NCBI GenBank assembly: GCA_016234725.1
Contig: JACRAK010000025.1
Location: 5,713 to 69,712, forward strand
Length of the DNA stretch: 64,000 nt
Origin: Candidatus Azambacteria bacterium
GTDB lineage: Bacteria > Patescibacteriota > Minisyncoccia > GWC2-36-17 > WO2-46-25
Direction: 5' to 3'
The notes below the pieces were generated by a model that was not told the origin of the DNA, searched no databases, and worked only from the letters and a program-made list of their open reading frames with translations. The stretch's first letter is position 1. Each line of letters starts with the position of its first letter. The position numbers were made by a program, and so were the translations under genes. This document shows positions 3,132-10,846 of the stretch, piece after piece.

Positions 3132-3533
3132 ATGGTCTCTCTTTCTCTCGTTTTTGCAATTCTCTTTTTCGCTTCACTCGGTGGCGCGATATTCATGGCG
3201 GTGAGAAAGGCGCCTGTGCTTGCGCGGATACCCGCAGAGTCGCTTCCCAACCAAGAAACATTCTTTGCTTGGGCGGCGCGAATAGCGAGGATACTGTTCA
3301 CCGCGCTGCATCCTCACCAGATAAAGATGTATGCGGTCGCGCAGACCGCGAAAACATTGCACATGTTTCGTGTTCTTTCTTTTAAAATACATCGGTTCGT
3401 TGATGCCATGGCGCACACCGCAAAGAAGAAATCGCAGGAAATGGAACGAGAGCATCGATCGGCGGCTCCTTCCGATGCGCAGGAGGGAGAAGCGGGGCGG
3501 GACGCAGGGAACGATGCGCATCGGAAAGAATAA
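3132..3533 (+). CDS. Hypothetical small membrane protein (single predicted TM helix)
   Basis: ORF with a hydrophobic N-terminus (VSLSLVFAILFFASLGGAIFMAV) and no recognisable domain. The start is uncertain; the longer ORF from 3078 overlaps the end of tsf. Confidence 0.25.
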   Translation: MVSLSLVFAILFFASLGGAIFMAVRKAPVLARIPAESLPNQETFFAWAARIARILFTALHPHQIKMYAVAQTAKTLHMFRVLSFKIHRFVDAMAHTAKKKSQEMEREHRSAAPSDAQEGEAGRDAGNDAHRKE

Positions 3534-3938: not shown

Positions 3939-4103
3939 CAACAGCAAAAAGGAGGCAAGGATTTTTCTTTGGCGTCTTTTTGCTGTCGATTCAGGAGGAT
4001 TTGAACCGCGGGCCGCAACCCACAAAGAGTGGGTGTAGGTTTCGAGCACAGCAGTGCGAGAGGCAAATCCTGCTCTGCGCACCAATTTTATTAAGAGAAT
4101 CAT

Positions 4104-4670
4104 ATGTTGACATACAACGAATTACGGAGAGGAACTTTTCTTTTATTGGACGACGAACCGTGGGTCGTCGAAGAATTTGAATTTTTGCGCATGCAGCAGC
4201 GCAAGCCCGTTGCAAAAGTGAAGATAAAAAGCCTTATCACCGGCAAAGTGCAGGAACGGACGTTTCACCAGAACGAATCGGTGGAAGAAGCGGTGCTTGA
4301 GAAAATGCCCGCGCGATTCTTGTATGAAAGCCGCGGCGAGTTCTGGTTTGATGAGCCGGGGAATCCGAAGAACCGCTTCTCGTTCACCCGTGAAGAGATC
4401 GCGGATATCGCGGAGTTCTTAAAACCGAACCTCGAAGTGATCGCGCTGAAGTTCGATGAGAAGATCATCAACATCGAGCCGCCGGTGAAGGTGGATTACA
4501 AGGTGGTGATGGCGCCGCCAGCTATTCGCGGCAACACCGCGCAGGGAGGCAATAAGACGGTGACGCTTGAGAACGGGCTTGAGATACAGGTGCCGCTGTT
4601 CGTGAACGAAGGCGACATCATCCGCGTGAACACCCAGCTGAAAACATACGTTGAAAGGGTGGGAAAATAA
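4104..4670 (+). CDS. efp: Elongation factor P
   Basis: 188 aa with an EF-P N-terminal KOW-like region and C-terminal OB domains (..GKVQERTFHQ.., ..IEPPVKVDYKV.., ..GDIIRVNTQ..). Confidence 0.88.
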   Translation: MLTYNELRRGTFLLLDDEPWVVEEFEFLRMQQRKPVAKVKIKSLITGKVQERTFHQNESVEEAVLEKMPARFLYESRGEFWFDEPGNPKNRFSFTREEIADIAEFLKPNLEVIALKFDEKIINIEPPVKVDYKVVMAPPAIRGNTAQGGNKTVTLENGLEIQVPLFVNEGDIIRVNTQLKTYVERVGK

Positions 4671-4778
4671 TATTGACGAAATCGGTATACATGCTACTAT
4701 CGCTGCAAAAGCGATAGTTTGCTTTTATACGGCATTATATCGATATCACGTACGTTAACAATACAAGGAGGTGGAGAG

Positions 4779-5087
4779 ATGAGAACCACATGCAGGAAGC
4801 ATGAAGCAGGGATCCATCAGTGCATTGAGAAGATCATAAACACATGTAAGCAGAAAATGATCCAGGTGCCGTTTAAGGATAAGCCGGCGCATATTATGCT
4901 GAACTGCAAGCAGGTAGACGACATTCTTGCGTATGCGGCCGAGGAAGCATATCACCCGAAGGAGGAATGTGCGCTGAAGTGGGAACCCGTGATGTGTTGC
5001 CATGAGCCCGATCTCATGTGTGAAAACTGCGGCAGATCTTTTAGGGATAGAGTGATAGAGAGGGCGCGAGGGAGTGGCGTGCTGTAG
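4779..5087 (+). CDS. Small Cys/His-rich protein, paralog 1 of a tandem triplet (unknown family)
   Basis: GGAGG ribosome-binding site 8 nt upstream of the ATG at 4779. Shares the motifs HxxIxECIEKIIN, LxCKQVDDIL and a C-terminal CxxC with the ORFs at 5463 and 5795. Confidence 0.5.
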   Translation: MRTTCRKHEAGIHQCIEKIINTCKQKMIQVPFKDKPAHIMLNCKQVDDILAYAAEEAYHPKEECALKWEPVMCCHEPDLMCENCGRSFRDRVIERARGSGVL

Positions 5088-5117
5088 CGATCTTTGATAC
5101 ACTGAAAGGAAAAAGAT

Positions 5118-5423
5118 ATGAGAACAATGGAACAACTGAACTTTCTTGATGAACCCGGAGAGAATAATGAGGACGAAGGAAATGAACCCGAGGTAGAGGA
5201 GGATGAGATGAAGGAAGAGAATGATGAGAATGATCTTGCAGATAAGGAGTTAGAAAAGAGAGTAAAGAAAACGGAGGCAACAACGATAGAAGGCGTAAAA
5301 AAAGATTTAGGGTATAATCCGGCGATTCCAACAGGACAAAAGAAGCCGCTGGGTCCGGGAAGAGCAGCAGCGCTTGAGCTTTTGAAGAAGTTCAGTGAGG
5401 AAAAGGAAAAAGGAGGCAAGTAG
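5118..5423 (+). CDS. Highly acidic (D/E-rich) small protein
   Basis: 101 aa with a long acidic run (EDEGNEPEVEEDEMKEENDENDLAD). It lies between paralogs 1 and 2 with tight spacing. Confidence 0.4.
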   Translation: MRTMEQLNFLDEPGENNEDEGNEPEVEEDEMKEENDENDLADKELEKRVKKTEATTIEGVKKDLGYNPAIPTGQKKPLGPGRAAALELLKKFSEEKEKGGK

Positions 5424-5462
5424 TTCTATTCTCGGCATTTTAAAAACGAGGAGGTGAGAAAG

Positions 5463-5771
5463 ATGGGGTGTAGTTCAGACGCACACACGAAAGAGATTCA
5501 CGAATGTGTTGAGAAAATAATCAATGCATATCGCCAGGACATGGATACTCATGCGCCAAAAATACAACGCTCACCGCACATTGCGCTTGTGTGCAGGGAC
5601 GTCAATCGTATTCTTGGTGACGTGATCGATCGAGCGGCACATCATAAAGGCCACACTGTGGTATGGCACTCATCGATTTTTGGCCAGGGACACGCGCTTA
5701 CGTGCGGAACATGCGCAGCTTCTTTCAACAATATGGTGATCGAGATGGCGCGAAAATTAAAAAAACTGTAA
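5463..5771 (+). CDS. Small Cys/His-rich protein, paralog 2
   Basis: GGAGG ribosome-binding site and conserved motifs (KEIHECVEKIINAYRQ, LVCRDVNRILGDVIDRAAHH, CGTC). Confidence 0.5.
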   Translation: MGCSSDAHTKEIHECVEKIINAYRQDMDTHAPKIQRSPHIALVCRDVNRILGDVIDRAAHHKGHTVVWHSSIFGQGHALTCGTCAASFNNMVIEMARKLKKL

Positions 5772-5794
5772 TTATTTTTGAAAGGAAGGTGCAC

Positions 5795-6133
5795 ATGAGA
5801 AAGTGCATGAAGCATGATCAGCAGATGCATCGGCATATCGAGCGCATCATGGAGCAGTATAAGCGCAGCGTAAATGGCAAGTCTGTGACCCTGACTTTGG
5901 TAGTTACGTTAACATGTGAGCAGGTGGACGACATCCTGGAAGACGTTGTTGCGAGAGCGACCGGACACGAACTTGGTCATCACGCAAACCCCCGTTTATG
6001 GGTGCATGTCGACGGAACTCCGCATCTTGCGTGCAGCTATTGCGGATCTCTTCTTACTCTCGAGGCTGAGGATGCATACCGTGAGATCGTCATGGGATAT
6101 CCTCCGCATGAAAAACAAGGCCCCCGGTCATAA
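5795..6133 (+). CDS. Small Cys/His-rich protein, paralog 3
   Basis: Ribosome-binding site GGAAGGTG; conserved motifs (HRHIERIMEQYKR, LTCEQVDDILEDVVARATGH, CSYCG). Confidence 0.5.
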   Translation: MRKCMKHDQQMHRHIERIMEQYKRSVNGKSVTLTLVVTLTCEQVDDILEDVVARATGHELGHHANPRLWVHVDGTPHLACSYCGSLLTLEAEDAYREIVMGYPPHEKQGPRS

Positions 6134-6191
6134 CGACGGGGGCTGTAACTTTTCTATGAATATAGTAGTCTTATAGTATATACTACAGCAT

Positions 6192-9100
6192 ATGAATTTA
6201 TATACAGCAGCCAGATTCTCTTCATTCGTTTCCCTTGCCGTTTTTATCGCGGTTGGTTTATGTGTATCACCGGTATTTTCCCATACCGTTTCTGCCGCTC
6301 CTTATTTTTACTTTGATGCTGAGAGCGGCACTGCGGGCGAGAGCCTTACTAACCCGCCTTTTTGTCAGACCGACTGCGGTGAAAGCTACCAAACAGGAAC
6401 GGTCGAATCTGCCGGAGGCGCTCCGCAAGGAACCAACTATTTTCAGTGGCACATCGCCAACCTTCAGCATTCTGTTTACAACATCGTTCATAACCCAAGC
6501 ACATTTCCTTTTAATCCGCCATTAGGGAGCACCATGTACTTGGCTTATTATTTTAATTATTCACGGGTCAATGGCGTAGATGTCTGGCATGAAGTTGACG
6601 ATAGCGCCGACAAGGGGATCGAACTTACCGGATCGGGCATACGATGGATAACGAGTCCCGGTCATTGGGGTTCGCTTGCAAACAATCAAGACCATCACTA
6701 TACCATCTGGATGGGTAATCCGACCTATCATCTCAATCCGCAATTTGAAGGCAATCCGTATTGGACGGTGGTTCCTCCCAATCAGAGCGGGTATAGCATC
6801 GCCGCCCCGCCCCAACTGGAATATGAACGATGGTATTCGGCCGTTATGGCAGTTAAGCTGGCTACAGATAATACCGGATCGGTTACCTTGTATCTTGATG
6901 GAGTAAAAATACTGGAATGGAACAACATCATCACTGCCGCAAACACCGCGCCAACCATAGAACACATAACAATGGGCGGGACCATTGCCCAGCCCGCCTA
7001 TGACACGCCGGAGCATTACAGAAAATACGACGCGTTAATGCTTACTGATAATTGGCAGGATATCGTTAACGGCGGATATCTTGGAACTTCATCAATCGCC
7101 GATACCCAAGCGCCGACCGTACCCAGCGGCCTTATTGCCATCGCCGCTTCTTCCGCGCAGATCGATCTTTCTTGGACGACTTCTACCGATACCATAGGAG
7201 TCACCGGATACACAATCTACCGAGACGGAACTCAAATTGCCACTTCCCCAACCAACTCATATGCAAACACCGGCCTTTCTGCTTCCACTCTCTACACATA
7301 TACCGTTTCCGCATATGATGCCGCCGGAAACAATTCCGCTCGATCCGCGATCGTATCAGCGACGACGCAGGCGGTACCGGTTGTCGCAACACCTTTCGGC
7401 ACTCCCGTCCTCAATTTCTCCGATCTCACTTCCGGCCCTAAGACCGGTTGGGAGGGATCGACTACTCAAGGATCGGCCGTCTCTATTTGGGGCAGCGGCT
7501 TTGGCTCATCAAGAGGTTCTAGTTATGTCACGGTCAATGGAGCCCAGCTTACTGCCGCCAGCGATTACGCAGAGTGGGGGGTGACAACGAACAACGCCAG
7601 GGGGCTAGAGAGAATTACATTTTGGTTAAATAATTTTTCCATCGACGGACCCGGCGGTATTACCGTTACCGTAAATGGCGAGACATCAAACACGCTCCCA
7701 TTTACCGTGCGGGCAGGAAATATCTATTTTATTGATGGCACAAACGGAAGCGATTCTTTTAATGGGGAAAAGGCGGTGAGCGGGGCAAGCGGAGGGCCAT
7801 GGAAACATTTCTATATGGCATCTCCCACGTACAATAGCGCTTTTCATGCCGGTGATATCGTTTATGTCAGGGGGGGTATTTATAATGAGATACACCCCAA
7901 CTCCGGGTCTGACCCTCTTATTATGTTTAATAACGTTCAGGGCACATCGGATAGTCCTTACATGATAGCCGCATTCCCTGGTGAATTTCCTCAGCTTGGC
8001 GATCAAGGGCATACCAAGGGAATATACAATCGCCAACAGGACGGCGGCGGTATACCATCACATGGCATAACTTTTTCAAAATTTCTATGGTCTCCCGGGT
8101 GCGAGGCGATCAACATTTGGGGAAATTATTGGCGCATTGTCGGCAACACGTTAAAAGATAATATCTGCGCAAGCCAGTCCGCCGCCCTTTCATCGACTAA
8201 TTCTGCCTATACCGAGGTATTGGGGAATGTTTTTGATCACAATGGAAACCCGGAATCCCAACTCCAGCATCATCTTTATTTCACTTCAGTATGTTTGGAT
8301 TACGGATATCAAAATTGTGCCGAATCCCATCATAATACGCTTGCATGGAATGAAACGATGAATGGACCAGGCTCGGCGGGGAACGGATCAGAATCCTGGG
8401 CCATTAAAACATGGATAGCAGGCACCGCGCTGACCTCCCACGATTTTTATATCCATGATAATTATTGGCACGATGAGCCGGGAGAAGCGATTTGGCTGTA
8501 TGCAAAAGTCAAAGATATTTACATTTACAACAATATCTTTGAGAAGGTAAATTTTTACAACAAGAAAGGAGGGATACGTTCTCAGGCTTTGGCCGGAAAT
8601 GCGCCCGCAGCAAACGGAAATTTATATTTATACAACAATACGTTTTACGACTGGAGCAACGGTGTTGATCAGGGGGCAATTGTCGCTTTTGGCGTGAATG
8701 ACCATTGGATCACAAAAAACAACATTTTTTATTCATCAAACCCGGCAGGATGGGTTTTGAGCGCGACGAATGGAGGCAGCGTTATATCCGATCACGACCT
8801 ATTCTATAATCACGGACAAATCAAATATAGCGGTGGAAATGTTACCACTACCAATGCGATTGTATCTGTAAACCCGCAATTTAGAAATAGTGCGACGCAC
8901 GATTTTTATTTAAACACCTCAAGTCCGGCAAAAGATGTCGGTGTCATGATAGATATTTTTAATAAAGACTATGACGGTATCTCCCGCCCTCAAGGCTCAG
9001 CATATGACATCGGCGCATACGAATATTATGAAGGCTCTGTTTCTGCCCCAGCTCCCATTGTCACTCCTCCGGCAAGCACACCAATAACCACACCTACCAC

Positions 9101-9638
9101 ACCGCCAACATCTTCCAGCGGCTCATCTTTTACCACCCCATCAGGGAATTCATCTTCGCAGACAACACCCTCTCCGGCTGCGAGCAACTCATCTCCTGCA
9201 ACTCCCTCAGGCATGAGCACATCCCCGGCAACTCACCCTTTAACCCAATCAACCGCATCACCATCTATCACAGAGGGTTCTCTCATTCGCGGCCCCGACG
9301 GCATTAAGGTGTATATTATCAACGCGCACGGGTACAAGCGCCATATCTTTAACCCCGCGATCTTCAATATGTACGGTCACTTCAAATGGAATGAAATTAA
9401 AAGCGTAGACCAACAAACACTCGATGCATTTAAAACATCCGATCTTTATCGGGCAGATGGGGATACTAAGGTCTTTTCCCTCTCTGAGATCAACGAAGCC
9501 CAAGGGCTTGCCCAAAAGCGCTGGTTTAACACCTCAGCCACAAAATTCCAACAACTCGGCTATACCTTTAATCAGGTCTTTATCATTAACCCGAGAGAGC
9601 GGGATTATTACCAGGAAGGCGCACCTATTACCAATTGA
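6192..9638 (+). CDS. Large secreted multidomain protein: signal/TM, ConA/LamG-like jelly-roll, fibronectin type III, right-handed beta-helix, Pro/Thr/Ser linker, C-terminal domain
   Basis: N-terminal hydrophobic signal. FN3 signature (APTVPSGL...LSWTTSTD...GYTIYRDG...YTYTVSAYDAAGN). Beta-helix repeats (NYWRIVGNTLKDN, NNIFYSS, ..YDIGAYEY). A PT-rich linker APAPIVTPPASTPITTPTTPPTSSSGSS. Confidence 0.7.
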   Translation: MNLYTAARFSSFVSLAVFIAVGLCVSPVFSHTVSAAPYFYFDAESGTAGESLTNPPFCQTDCGESYQTGTVESAGGAPQGTNYFQWHIANLQHSVYNIVHNPSTFPFNPPLGSTMYLAYYFNYSRVNGVDVWHEVDDSADKGIELTGSGIRWITSPGHWGSLANNQDHHYTIWMGNPTYHLNPQFEGNPYWTVVPPNQSGYSIAAPPQLEYERWYSAVMAVKLATDNTGSVTLYLDGVKILEWNNIITAANTAPTIEHITMGGTIAQPAYDTPEHYRKYDALMLTDNWQDIVNGGYLGTSSIADTQAPTVPSGLIAIAASSAQIDLSWTTSTDTIGVTGYTIYRDGTQIATSPTNSYANTGLSASTLYTYTVSAYDAAGNNSARSAIVSATTQAVPVVATPFGTPVLNFSDLTSGPKTGWEGSTTQGSAVSIWGSGFGSSRGSSYVTVNGAQLTAASDYAEWGVTTNNARGLERITFWLNNFSIDGPGGITVTVNGETSNTLPFTVRAGNIYFIDGTNGSDSFNGEKAVSGASGGPWKHFYMASPTYNSAFHAGDIVYVRGGIYNEIHPNSGSDPLIMFNNVQGTSDSPYMIAAFPGEFPQLGDQGHTKGIYNRQQDGGGIPSHGITFSKFLWSPGCEAINIWGNYWRIVGNTLKDNICASQSAALSSTNSAYTEVLGNVFDHNGNPESQLQHHLYFTSVCLDYGYQNCAESHHNTLAWNETMNGPGSAGNGSESWAIKTWIAGTALTSHDFYIHDNYWHDEPGEAIWLYAKVKDIYIYNNIFEKVNFYNKKGGIRSQALAGNAPAANGNLYLYNNTFYDWSNGVDQGAIVAFGVNDHWITKNNIFYSSNPAGWVLSATNGGSVISDHDLFYNHGQIKYSGGNVTTTNAIVSVNPQFRNSATHDFYLNTSSPAKDVGVMIDIFNKDYDGISRPQGSAYDIGAYEYYEGSVSAPAPIVTPPASTPITTPTTPPTSSSGSSFTTPSGNSSSQTTPSPAASNSSPATPSGMSTSPATHPLTQSTASPSITEGSLIRGPDGIKVYIINAHGYKRHIFNPAIFNMYGHFKWNEIKSVDQQTLDAFKTSDLYRADGDTKVFSLSEINEAQGLAQKRWFNTSATKFQQLGYTFNQVFIINPRERDYYQEGAPITN

Positions 9639-9771
9639 ACCGGTGCGGGCGAGCGCGTGTAGGAGGTGCGTGATAGAATGTTTTCTTATGTGCTGGTAGA
9701 CTAATATTCTCCACAGTAGTCGCTTTGCTTTATGAGAAAAATAGCATATAATCGCATAATAAGCTATTTTT

Positions 9772-10365
9772 ATGGATCTTTCACGTTCTTTACTTGAGAA
9801 GTTTTACATAAAAAAGAACAGATCTGTTTCCGATATTGCGAAGGCACTTCGCTGTTCTGAGCATAAGATAAACTATTGGCTCGCGAAATTCACTATTCCA
9901 AAACGATCGATCAGTGAAGCGATCTATGTAAAAAACCACCCTCGCGGTGATCCTTTCAAAGTAAAAAAACAATTAACGAGCCGTGAGGTAAAACTTCTTG
10001 GGCTTGGGCTTGGGCTTTATTGGGGCGAAGGGAACAAGAAGAATAAGGTGTCGCTGCGATTAGGGAATACGGATCCGAGGCTGATAAAGATGTTCATGGA
10101 TTTTCTAGAAGAGATTTGCGGAGTGGCGCGAAACGCTATTACATTCAATCTCCTTATTTTTAATGATATCAGCGTATCTGCGGCAAAGCGATTTTGGGTT
10201 GCGGCATTGGGTATTCGCCCGGAACAGATACGAGGCAAAGTTATTGTGCTGAAGTCGGGGCGCATCGGCACATATAGACAGAAATCAAAATATGGAGTAT
10301 TAATATTACAGTATCACAATCGAAAACTCCGTGATATACTATGCGGGATGATTGAAAAATTATAA
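9772..10365 (+). CDS. HTH protein with a degenerate LAGLIDADG-like motif (possible free-standing homing-endonuclease relic)
   Basis: N-terminal HTH (SVSDIAKALRCSEHKINYWLAKF) and the motif KLLGLGLGLYWGEGNKKN resembling LAGLIDADG. The catalytic acidic positions are not clearly conserved. A TATAAT -10 box sits at about 9748. Confidence 0.3.
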   Translation: MDLSRSLLEKFYIKKNRSVSDIAKALRCSEHKINYWLAKFTIPKRSISEAIYVKNHPRGDPFKVKKQLTSREVKLLGLGLGLYWGEGNKKNKVSLRLGNTDPRLIKMFMDFLEEICGVARNAITFNLLIFNDISVSAAKRFWVAALGIRPEQIRGKVIVLKSGRIGTYRQKSKYGVLILQYHNRKLRDILCGMIEKL

Positions 10366-10458
10366 GCGATGTCATAAGAGGTGAATCGCTTGAAATTCCG
10401 TCGCTCGCCCGTCGCGAAAATTCATTTTCGTGCGGACTCGCTAGGAATTATAAAATAT

Positions 10459-10743
10459 GCCGTTGTAGCTCAGTTGGTAGAGCAACTCCATGGTAGAGCG
10501 TTTTTTCTGCCCGTAGCGAGGGAAACTTCGCTGATGAATCCGAATAACGGTTAAAAACTTAGCACAAAGTTAAGACCGTGGCGTTATCCTTTAGTGTTTT
10601 CTGGAGAATAAAGCCCGAACGACTGACAAGGAGGGCTGAATCAAAGTATGCCCAAGATACAGTCTAGCCCTCTCTATACGTGCATTAAAAAAGAGAGGTG
10701 TAAGCGAAGGAGTAGGTCGCCGGTTCAACTCCGGCCAACGGCT
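10459..10743 (+). tRNA. tRNA (probably Thr-GGU, anticodon assignment tentative) interrupted in the anticodon loop by a group-I-like intron of about 215 nt
   Basis: 5' exon GCCGTTG-TA-GCTC-AGTTGGTA-GAGC-A-ACTCC; 3' exon GGAGT-AGGTC-GCCGG-TTCAACT-CCGGC-CAACGGC, giving a perfect cloverleaf. The intron carries group I core-like elements: GCGAGGGAAACTTCGC, GAATCCGAAT, a P7-like GACTG...AAGATACAGTCTAG, and ends in G before the 3' exon. Confidence 0.6.
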
Positions 10744-10846
10744 CAGGTATGATTAATAACCCATAACCTACAACTAATAACCGCCGCATAACTTATAATT
10801 TTTGTTATCAGTTATGTGTTAAAAGCTGGTAGTTTGTTAAAATAAT

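Follow-up and report, generated by a model that had tools for sequence, protein, structure and literature searches.

A two-subfamily Cys/His protein family and its acidic partner encoded behind efp in a narrow group of Azambacteria-like bacteria

Results and Discussion

We have analysed a 64,000-nucleotide stretch of a Candidatus Azambacteria contig (JACRAK010000025.1, positions 5,713 to 69,712; hereafter the window), focussing on four small consecutive genes, here called A, D, B and C, that lie directly downstream of efp, the gene for elongation factor P (EF-P). Judged by their sequences, A, B and C belong to a previously undescribed family of Cys/His proteins with two subfamilies (T1 and T2), and D codes for an acidic protein that accompanies them. 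The module is restricted to one narrow group of Azambacteria-like bacteria of the Candidate Phyla Radiation (CPR). The reading that we favour, tentatively and with slightly less than even confidence, is of a lineage-restricted operon behind efp that would encode a metal-held T1/T2 complex with D as its tether. CPR bacteria have many unannotated small proteins, and for few of them have family boundaries, signatures or a genomic logic been defined. This family can now be delimited by its two subfamilies, a signature of nine ligand positions, the T1-T2 pairing, the partner D, a clade boundary and the exchange of cassettes between lineages. The genes concerned are the following.

4104-4670, forward strand: efp (EF-P), conserved gene that anchors the module upstream; Pfam annotations EFP_N and Elong-fact-P_C on genes identical or orthologous to it
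4779-5087, forward strand: gene A (T1a), 102 aa, Cys/His protein of the T1 subfamily, alpha-cassette type
5118-5423, forward strand: gene D, 101 aa, acidic, Cys/His-free, beta type, likely disordered; N-terminal QLNFL and C-terminal GPGRAAALELLKKF helix motif
5463-5771, forward strand: gene B (T1b), 102 aa, T1 subfamily, beta-cassette type
5795-6133, forward strand: gene C (T2), 112 aa, T2 subfamily, with the LTLEAEDAYREIV helix and a K-Q-G-P-R-S tail

A family of Cys/His proteins

The four reading frames stand where a first-pass annotation of the window had placed them, each with a GGAGG-type ribosome-binding site of its own 6-9 nt upstream. They are real protein-coding genes under purifying selection: the ratio of non-synonymous to synonymous substitution rates (dN/dS, 0.10-0.45 overall) was 0.10-0.24 for T1 (0.24 for T1a and 0.10 for T1b), 0.16-0.41 for T2 (0.16 for C of the window) and 0.11-0.45 for D, compared with 0.03-0.07 for efp, as expected of real genes that evolve faster than their housekeeping neighbours but without diversifying selection. 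The proposed relationship of the three Cys/His genes held up well, with BLASTP E-values of 3e-16 (A/B), 4e-6 (A/C) and 1e-5 (B/C). In addition, a hidden Markov model (HMM) built from T1 proteins only matches T2 proteins at ~1e-12, and a T2-only model matches T1 up to ~1e-12. The similarity is beyond chance, and A, B and C appear to be true paralogs. They are also the sole copies found when the 64-kb window was scanned with the family HMMs. The T1 subfamily (A, B and their relatives) has a C-terminus of the form ...VIE-x-AR-x-L-x-x-L, and T2 (C and its relatives, 17 clusters recovered) ends in ...LTLEAEDAYREIV...K-Q-S-P-R-S. B is 68% identical in amino acids to the T1 protein of a related locus (L006), and A is 60% identical to that of another (L007).

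Among the motifs first described as shared by the three proteins, the central L-x-C-[KRE]-[QD]-V-[DN]-[DR]-I-L and the C-terminal CxxC stand, but the N-terminal one had been slightly mis-registered and reads, once corrected, C-x2-H-x4-H-x-[CH]-[IV]-E-[KR]-I-[IM]-[NE]. Counted over the 26 family members collected, conservation gives a ligand signature with nine positions, C-x2-H-x4-H-x-[HC] ... C ... H-x3-[HC] ... C-x2-C, that is, C4, H7, H12, H/C14, C41, H58, H/C62, C80 and C83. H7, H12, C80 and C83 are each found in 26/26 sequences, as is a His or Cys at position 62; C41 is conserved in 25 and C4 also in 25 (within two columns), and H/C14 and H58 in 22 each. The loop formed by residues 58-77 varies in sequence and is persistently His-rich. 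Cys and His together make up 11.6-13.7% of A, B and C vs. 2.9% in 12.6 thousand amino acids of neighbouring genes, a 4-5-fold enrichment. If a generic structural zinc site is taken to be four conserved Cys/His ligands placed to chelate one metal ion, the eight or nine conserved positions would be enough for two tetrahedral sites, and the ligand pattern together with the enrichment points to one or two zinc sites per T protein.

An AlphaFold2 model of C, made from a 22-sequence alignment (mean predicted local distance difference test score, pLDDT, 82; predicted template-modelling score, pTM, 0.75), has a helix at residues 9-26, a second one at 41-57, a beta-hairpin at 66-70/76-80, a third helix at 88-99 and a disordered tail. 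In this model C80 and C83 are placed at the knuckle between hairpin and helix, and H7 and H12 at the start of helix 1. Foldseek searches with it against PDB and BFVD gave no fold match (best E-values 0.26-0.43, template-modelling score <0.35). Pfam, NCBIfam, PHROGs and PADLOC returned only sub-threshold noise, both for the proteins of the window and for all 26 members. Sequence profiles of PDB entries yielded only a local likeness in the hairpin-CxxCG stretch, to C2H2 fingers (E >=0.005) and to Fur (E ~0.05-0.12). D had no match in the known-family searches either, an hhalign comparison of T2 with D found them unrelated, and a single-sequence word-index search with A returned only A itself. 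In the literature on Azambacteria and on EF-P in Patescibacteria we found nothing relevant to the module. The view of A, B and C as an unassignable Cys/His family, probably metal-binding, thus agrees with all of these searches.

Comparison with known zinc proteins and other candidates

The closest local likeness is to C2H2 (beta-beta-alpha) fingers. Both have a beta-hairpin with a C-x2-C-G knuckle followed by a helix, and a helical H-x4-H pair, and the local profile matches to PRDM9 and ZBTB cover precisely the hairpin-CxxCG stretch. However, the His pair of the T proteins lies ~70 residues before the CxxC and not 12 after it, the helix that follows the CxxC is devoid of His, and the domain is ~100 aa long with further conserved ligands. 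Taking as a C2H2 finger a C-x2-4-C-x12-H-x3-5-H arrangement within ~28 residues that scores above the Pfam gathering threshold, we rejected this assignment: there was no zf-C2H2 match and no His pair after the CxxC, and zf-C2HE, zf-CHCC and CCHC matched single members at 13-15 bits vs. cut-offs of ~27. Fur-family sites (HHxHxxCxxCG) share with the T proteins a local P-H-L-x-C-x2-C-G on a beta-strand, and FurB/Fur profiles matched weakly (E=0.05-0.12). These matches are non-significant, though, and the T proteins differ in overall topology and have no winged-helix DNA-binding domain.

Zinc-binding anti-sigma (ZAS) factors are likewise small, helical and rich in His and Cys, and some T1 proteins have their H-x3-C-x2-C at the C-terminal knuckle. 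In ZAS proteins this motif is invariant within the anti-sigma domain and the gene of an extracytoplasmic function (ECF) sigma factor lies adjacent. In the T proteins the His register varies, with H-x2-C in T2 and H-x5-C in A and in L007, so that the His-to-Cys spacing is x2, x3 or x5, and neither the window nor L007 has a sigma gene beside the module. The best NCBIfam anti-sigma match (E=0.19) scored 11.6 bits against a cut-off of 50, and the suggestion of small anti-sigma-like regulators was dropped.

Three further candidates were considered and set aside. Zincin metalloproteases have an invariant H-E-x-x-H on an alpha-helix; C of the window does contain H58-E-L-G-H62, but homologs have D, A, G or K in place of E59, 4 of the 26 sequences carry P or Y at position 58, and the motif falls in a predicted loop. 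Precursors of ribosomally synthesized and post-translationally modified peptides (RiPPs) are short leader-core peptides with a hypervariable core, encoded beside modification or export genes. The T proteins are conserved and predicted to be folded over their whole length and no locus contains maturation or transport genes, so that the idea of precursor-like peptides is not supported either. For known anti-phage or toxin-antitoxin proteins we looked for a PADLOC or PHROG model match and a patchy distribution. The best PADLOC match (E=0.0055) covers 43 residues in just one of the paralogs, PHROG matches have E>=0.016, and the module is universal within its clade.

The composition of the T proteins also brings to mind metal homeostasis, i.e., a zinc, nickel or copper buffer, chaperone or sensor whose His-rich central loop would bind exchangeable metal. 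The high Cys and His content (12-14%) and the persistence of His in loop 58-77 speak in its favour, as do a near-consensus promoter (see below) and ribosome-binding sites, which suggest high expression. On the other hand, the best-conserved ligands look structural, the module is not linked to any gene for a transporter, regulator or metalloenzyme, and we found no similarity to known metallochaperones or metallothioneins. We regard this role as doubtful.

A module confined to one clade and always behind efp

A HMMER search of 1.84 billion representative proteins recovered about ten true relatives, together with three other matches that were eukaryotic or repeat zinc fingers with E-values near 1e-3, and a profile search of 5.8 billion clusters added further T2 members. 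Across these two collections the family amounts to ~25 protein clusters. Among 185,579 GTDB species genomes only one carries it, and this is again a Candidatus Azambacteria metagenome-assembled genome (JANLHQ010000019). When 80 metagenome loci were fetched by efp similarity and scanned with the family HMMs, the module was present in 6/6 loci with an efp of >=74% identity and in 0/74 with an efp of <=65%; in the module-free loci unrelated genes come after efp. No relatives turned up in phage and plasmid records (tblastn) or in a scan of IMG/VR. This distribution identifies the module as a synapomorphy of one narrow clade.

In every family-bearing locus the module lies directly downstream of efp, a conserved neighbour that the first-pass annotation had missed. 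On a 126-kb contig the order is murC-rpsB-tsf-(131-aa membrane protein)-tRNAs-efp-[T1, D, T2]-tRNA-Thr-rpmG-tRNA-Trp-lysS-serS. The corresponding protein of the window (3132-3533, forward strand; ~133 aa), which has an N-terminal membrane helix and matches nothing in Pfam, is conserved at the same place, after tsf and before the tRNA-Thr/Tyr-efp block, in every long relative (L005, L007, L011, L013 and L015).

The predicted transcription signals of the module in the window, all on the forward strand, are these.

4673-4728: predicted efp terminator and module promoter, overlapping (consensus scan and conservation)
4673-4678: predicted -35 element TTGACG (consensus scan)
ending at 4700: predicted extended -10 element TGnTACTAT (consensus scan)
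4696-4718: predicted efp terminator hairpin ACTATCGC...GCGATAGT, then TTGCTTTT (conservation)
4748-4771: box ACGYACRTTAACAATA in the 5' untranslated region, then the AAGGAGG ribosome-binding site of A (columns invariant in alignment A7)
6119-6155: predicted intrinsic terminator of the module, with its 5' arm GCCCCCGGTC in the last T2 codons and its 3' arm GACGGGGGC followed by a T-rich run

Two arrangements of the module occur, an alpha and a beta cassette (described below). The alpha-type spacer keeps a TTGAC[GA]-16 nt-TGnTAC[TC]AT promoter element, the hairpin and the ACGYACRTTAACAATA box, a possible operator or leader element. Across five diverged loci of the alpha type, the promoter and terminator elements are invariant or compensated, at a divergence at which the synonymous sites of efp are saturated. 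The efp terminator hairpin and the -10 element share bases (TACTAT / ACTATCGC), an arrangement that is conserved in the five loci; a transcript started at the module promoter would not contain the 5' arm of this terminator. At the other end, a GC-rich hairpin followed by a T-run is predicted after T2 in 8/8 loci examined, with compensatory changes (C-G to T-A, G-C to A-T) and G-U wobbles. Its 5' arm is formed by the last five codons of T2, which would explain why the disordered K-Q-S-P-R-S tail is conserved. With a predicted promoter and terminator, the operon appears to be bounded on both sides in the window and the other alpha-type loci, and we infer that the module is a separate transcription unit with its own terminator and, in alpha-type loci, its own promoter.

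The constant position behind efp, within the series rpsB-tsf-efp-[module]-tRNA-Thr-rpmG-tRNA-Trp-lysS-serS, could mean that the module acts with EF-P or the ribosome, e.g., as a lineage-specific EF-P partner or an accessory ribosomal protein. Moreover, beta-type modules begin 9-36 nt after efp with no terminator between them, so that they are probably co-transcribed with it. However, in alpha-type loci, the window included, a terminator and a separate promoter come between efp and the module, the EF-P loop RMQQRKPVA is also found in many CPR relatives that have no module, and the T proteins have no similarity to ribosomal proteins or EF-P-modifying enzymes. A link to translation seems to us unlikely.

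The EF-P of this clade deserves a comment in its own right. Its loop, F-L-R-M-Q-Q-R-K-P-V-A, is the same in the window clade and in all fetched distant CPR relatives (including L020-L030). E. coli has K-P-G-K-G-Q-A at this place, and a manual alignment with the E. coli sequence sets a Gln opposite the modified Lys34. The loop suggests a particular EF-P subtype. In the clade-II relative L011, a 478-aa gene with a deoxyhypusine-synthase domain (PF01916; L011 1968-3404) lies seven genes upstream of efp, which is worth noting beside the unusual EF-P loop.

The acidic protein D and the proposed complex

The 101-aa protein encoded between A and B is indeed acidic (pI 4.55), is of low complexity and has neither Cys nor His; more than an interleaved protein, it is a conserved part of the module. 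Its homologs form 12 clusters, all located inside modules. Common to them are a [Q/E]-phi-[D/N/P]-[L/F]-[F/L/G] motif at the N-terminus, an acidic linker, a G-[FY] motif and a basic amphipathic C-terminal helix (R-x-x-W-L-A-L or G-P-G-R-x-A-x-L-E). Counted from the MEK/MEQ start that homology supports, the N-terminal motif falls at positions 5-13, in the first ~10 residues of the mature N-terminus, and takes the forms QFDLF, QIDLF, QQFDLF, QMDFF, QLNFL, QLPLGG, QVPLGG and EVPLGG.

These observations can be joined in the following model. T1 and T2 are cytoplasmic paralogs of ~100 aa, each modelled as helix, helix, beta-hairpin and C-terminal helix, and their fold would be held by one or two tetrahedral metal sites, most likely zinc, drawn from the nine ligand positions. 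None of the complete modules has T1 without T2 or T2 without T1, for which reason the two probably act as a hetero-oligomer. D, with its hydrophobic N-terminal motif, acidic linker and amphipathic C-terminal helix, would probably tether this complex to another cellular component. Several facts weigh against the model. One member (P0008) lacks both C4 and C41. AlphaFold2 run with the three paralogs alone reached a pLDDT of only 49, which shows how far the 22-sequence model depends on a shallow alignment. In L011 the locus is T1-T2 without D, so that D is either dispensable or encoded elsewhere and the invariant core is the T1+T2 pair. Metal binding, the hetero-oligomer and the interaction of D are all things that we infer from sequence, and as the family has no functional homolog any cellular role is a guess. 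Our ranking of such roles places a generic regulatory or adaptor complex first, followed by metal homeostasis, a link to translation or EF-P, a clamp-linked regulator, a conflict element and, last, a partner of a surface protein.

The clamp-linked regulator arises from the motif of D. Proteins that bind the beta sliding clamp (DnaN) do so through an accessible QL[S/D]LF or QxxLF, or QLxLxL, motif, the N-terminal one of Hda being QLSLPL (PMC12309361). D orthologs carry a QxxLF-like motif near their N-terminus (QFDLF, QIDLF, QMDFF, QLNFL, QLPLGG), and the module might then be a regulator of replication or DNA transactions, functionally analogous to Hda and YabA, in which D binds the clamp and recruits the zinc-binding T1/T2. 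For a small zinc protein in this role there is a precedent in YabA, the Firmicutes controller of replication initiation, which is 119 aa long, has one zinc per chain and binds both DnaA and DnaN (PMC4705661). The T proteins may be likened to YabA in that it, too, is small and cytoplasmic, has an N-terminal helix and, at its C-terminus, a His/Cys zinc site that closes with C-x2-C, and serves as a hub of protein interactions (PMC4705661). YabA differs in its H-x-C-x11-C-x2-C motif with one zinc and its leucine-zipper tetramer, and it has neither a paralogous pair nor an acidic partner gene. Using that zinc motif plus an N-terminal leucine zipper, and the Pfam YabA model, as the test of membership, we rejected a YabA assignment, as the ligand pattern differs and none of the 26 members matches the model at E<=1 (PMC4705661). 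Furthermore, a strict QxxLF is present in only 3 of ~12 D variants (the D of the window reads QLNFL, in P0037 the Q is an E, and P0035 has no motif), the motif was noticed after the fact, neither YabA nor Hda is homologous to the proteins of the module, and no replication genes are nearby. A regulator of this general kind is decidedly unlikely. Its most specific form, a CPR-specific replication or cell-cycle regulator in which D sits on the clamp and recruits to the replisome a heterodimer of T1 and T2 with two zincs, as a non-homologous analogue of Hda/YabA, is more unlikely still. Were D to bind the clamp, the module would be a lineage-specific replication regulator in a lineage without a described counterpart; if it does not, the module stays a well-delimited, clade-specific unit with its function unassigned.

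Two cassette forms and a hybrid locus

In the alpha cassette, efp is followed by a conserved intergenic region of ~110 nt and then T1-D(alpha)-T2 (loci L003, L004, L005, L007-10, L014, L017 and L018); in the beta cassette only 9-36 nt separate efp from D(beta)-T1-T2 (L002, L006, L093 and L094). Each form is present in both efp subclades. The window combines the two. Its positions 4000-5072 (efp, intergenic region and A) are collinear with the alpha-type L007 at 79.8% nucleotide identity, and 5110-6179 (D, B, C and the terminator) with the beta-type L093 at 78.3%, while 5072-5782 has no match in L007. Along the same lines, D of the window is 88% identical to P0034 of L093 and only 18% to the D of L007, although the window and L007 are 93% identical in efp. 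For this last pair the synonymous divergence (dS) is 0.52 for T2 (5795-6133 vs. L007 10001-10333) and 1.28 for efp, a pattern that recent recombination here, or an extra constraint at the nucleotide level, could produce. The T1-D-T1-T2 order of the window is thus best described, from these alignments, as a hybrid of the T1-D-T2 and D-T1-T2 cassettes; the split in collinearity, the D identities and the contrast in dS point to recombination between cassette forms and not to triplication in place. Of the tandem triplication proposed at first, the three paralogs remain, but they fall into two old subfamilies. An ancestral four-gene locus with reciprocal loss is disfavoured, since both cassette forms occur in both efp subclades.

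Mosaic cassettes that are discordant with the efp phylogeny, a T2 dS below that of efp in the same genome pair (0.52 vs. 1.28), and an adjacent region that varies, having a giant gene inserted and a tRNA interrupted (see below), could also be the marks of a domesticated mobile or conflict element (toxin-antitoxin, anti-phage or phage-derived) in a recombination hotspot. Yet the module is found in every sampled member of the clade and is not patchy, selection on it is purifying and not diversifying, and matches were lacking in PADLOC, PHROGs, phage and plasmid records and IMG/VR. We consider such an origin very unlikely.

The neighbouring surface protein gene and the interrupted tRNA

A gene for a secreted protein of 1148 aa starts 58 nt after C, and the leading idea of the first-pass annotation was that the small proteins serve as its chaperones, partners or regulators. 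Of the domain content then given for the giant protein, FN3 is supported by Pfam (fn3, E=1.6e-7), but the polysaccharide-lyase-like and DUF5123 matches are weak and below the cut-offs. A secreted-protein gene does follow the terminator in the window and in L005, where the intergenic regions are homologous and the gene opens with shared codons, and in L002 a reading frame with a signal-peptide-like opening comes after T2 (the contig ends after 26 codons). However, the two secreted proteins align only over one segment of 88 aa (E=1e-7) and, weakly, at their N-termini. In 5/8 lineages (L004, L006, L007/L014 and L011) the giant gene is missing at this site, and the terminator is followed by a TTGAAA-17-TATACT promoter and tRNA-Thr; in L007 only ~120 nt lie between T2 and tRNA-Thr, with rpmG next. 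An association of the two in other genomes had been set beforehand as the test, and it does not hold, since T2 is directly followed by tRNA-Thr and rpmG in several loci. On inspection of their sequences, T1, T2 and D have no signal peptides. Given the absence of the gene in most lineages and the conserved terminator in between, the partner or chaperone idea is not supported and we hold it to be highly improbable. The surface protein gene appears to be a recurrent but dispensable neighbour, transcriptionally separate from the module, and a misleading link is thereby removed.

The region of 6192-10365 (forward strand) that contains the giant gene and a 197-aa reading frame (9772-10365) is absent from the equivalent site of L007. 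The 197-aa frame has no Pfam or PDB match and lies 93 nt upstream of an interrupted tRNA-Thr; its LGLGLYWGEGNK stretch is reminiscent of LAGLIDADG endonucleases. The tRNA-Thr(GGU) of the window (10459-10744, forward strand) is interrupted by a 212-nt insert (10496-10707) at position 36/37, right after the anticodon, and its L007 ortholog (10457-10531) is uninterrupted. Default tRNA scans missed the interrupted gene, and Rfam gave no group I match for the insert even at E<=10. U is the last nucleotide of the 5' exon and G that of the insert, and a AAGAUACAGUCUAG stretch of the insert resembles the J8/7-P7 region of group I introns. The insert folds stably (z = -3.4, with 0/200 shuffles folding as well) and contains a GAAA-tetraloop hairpin.

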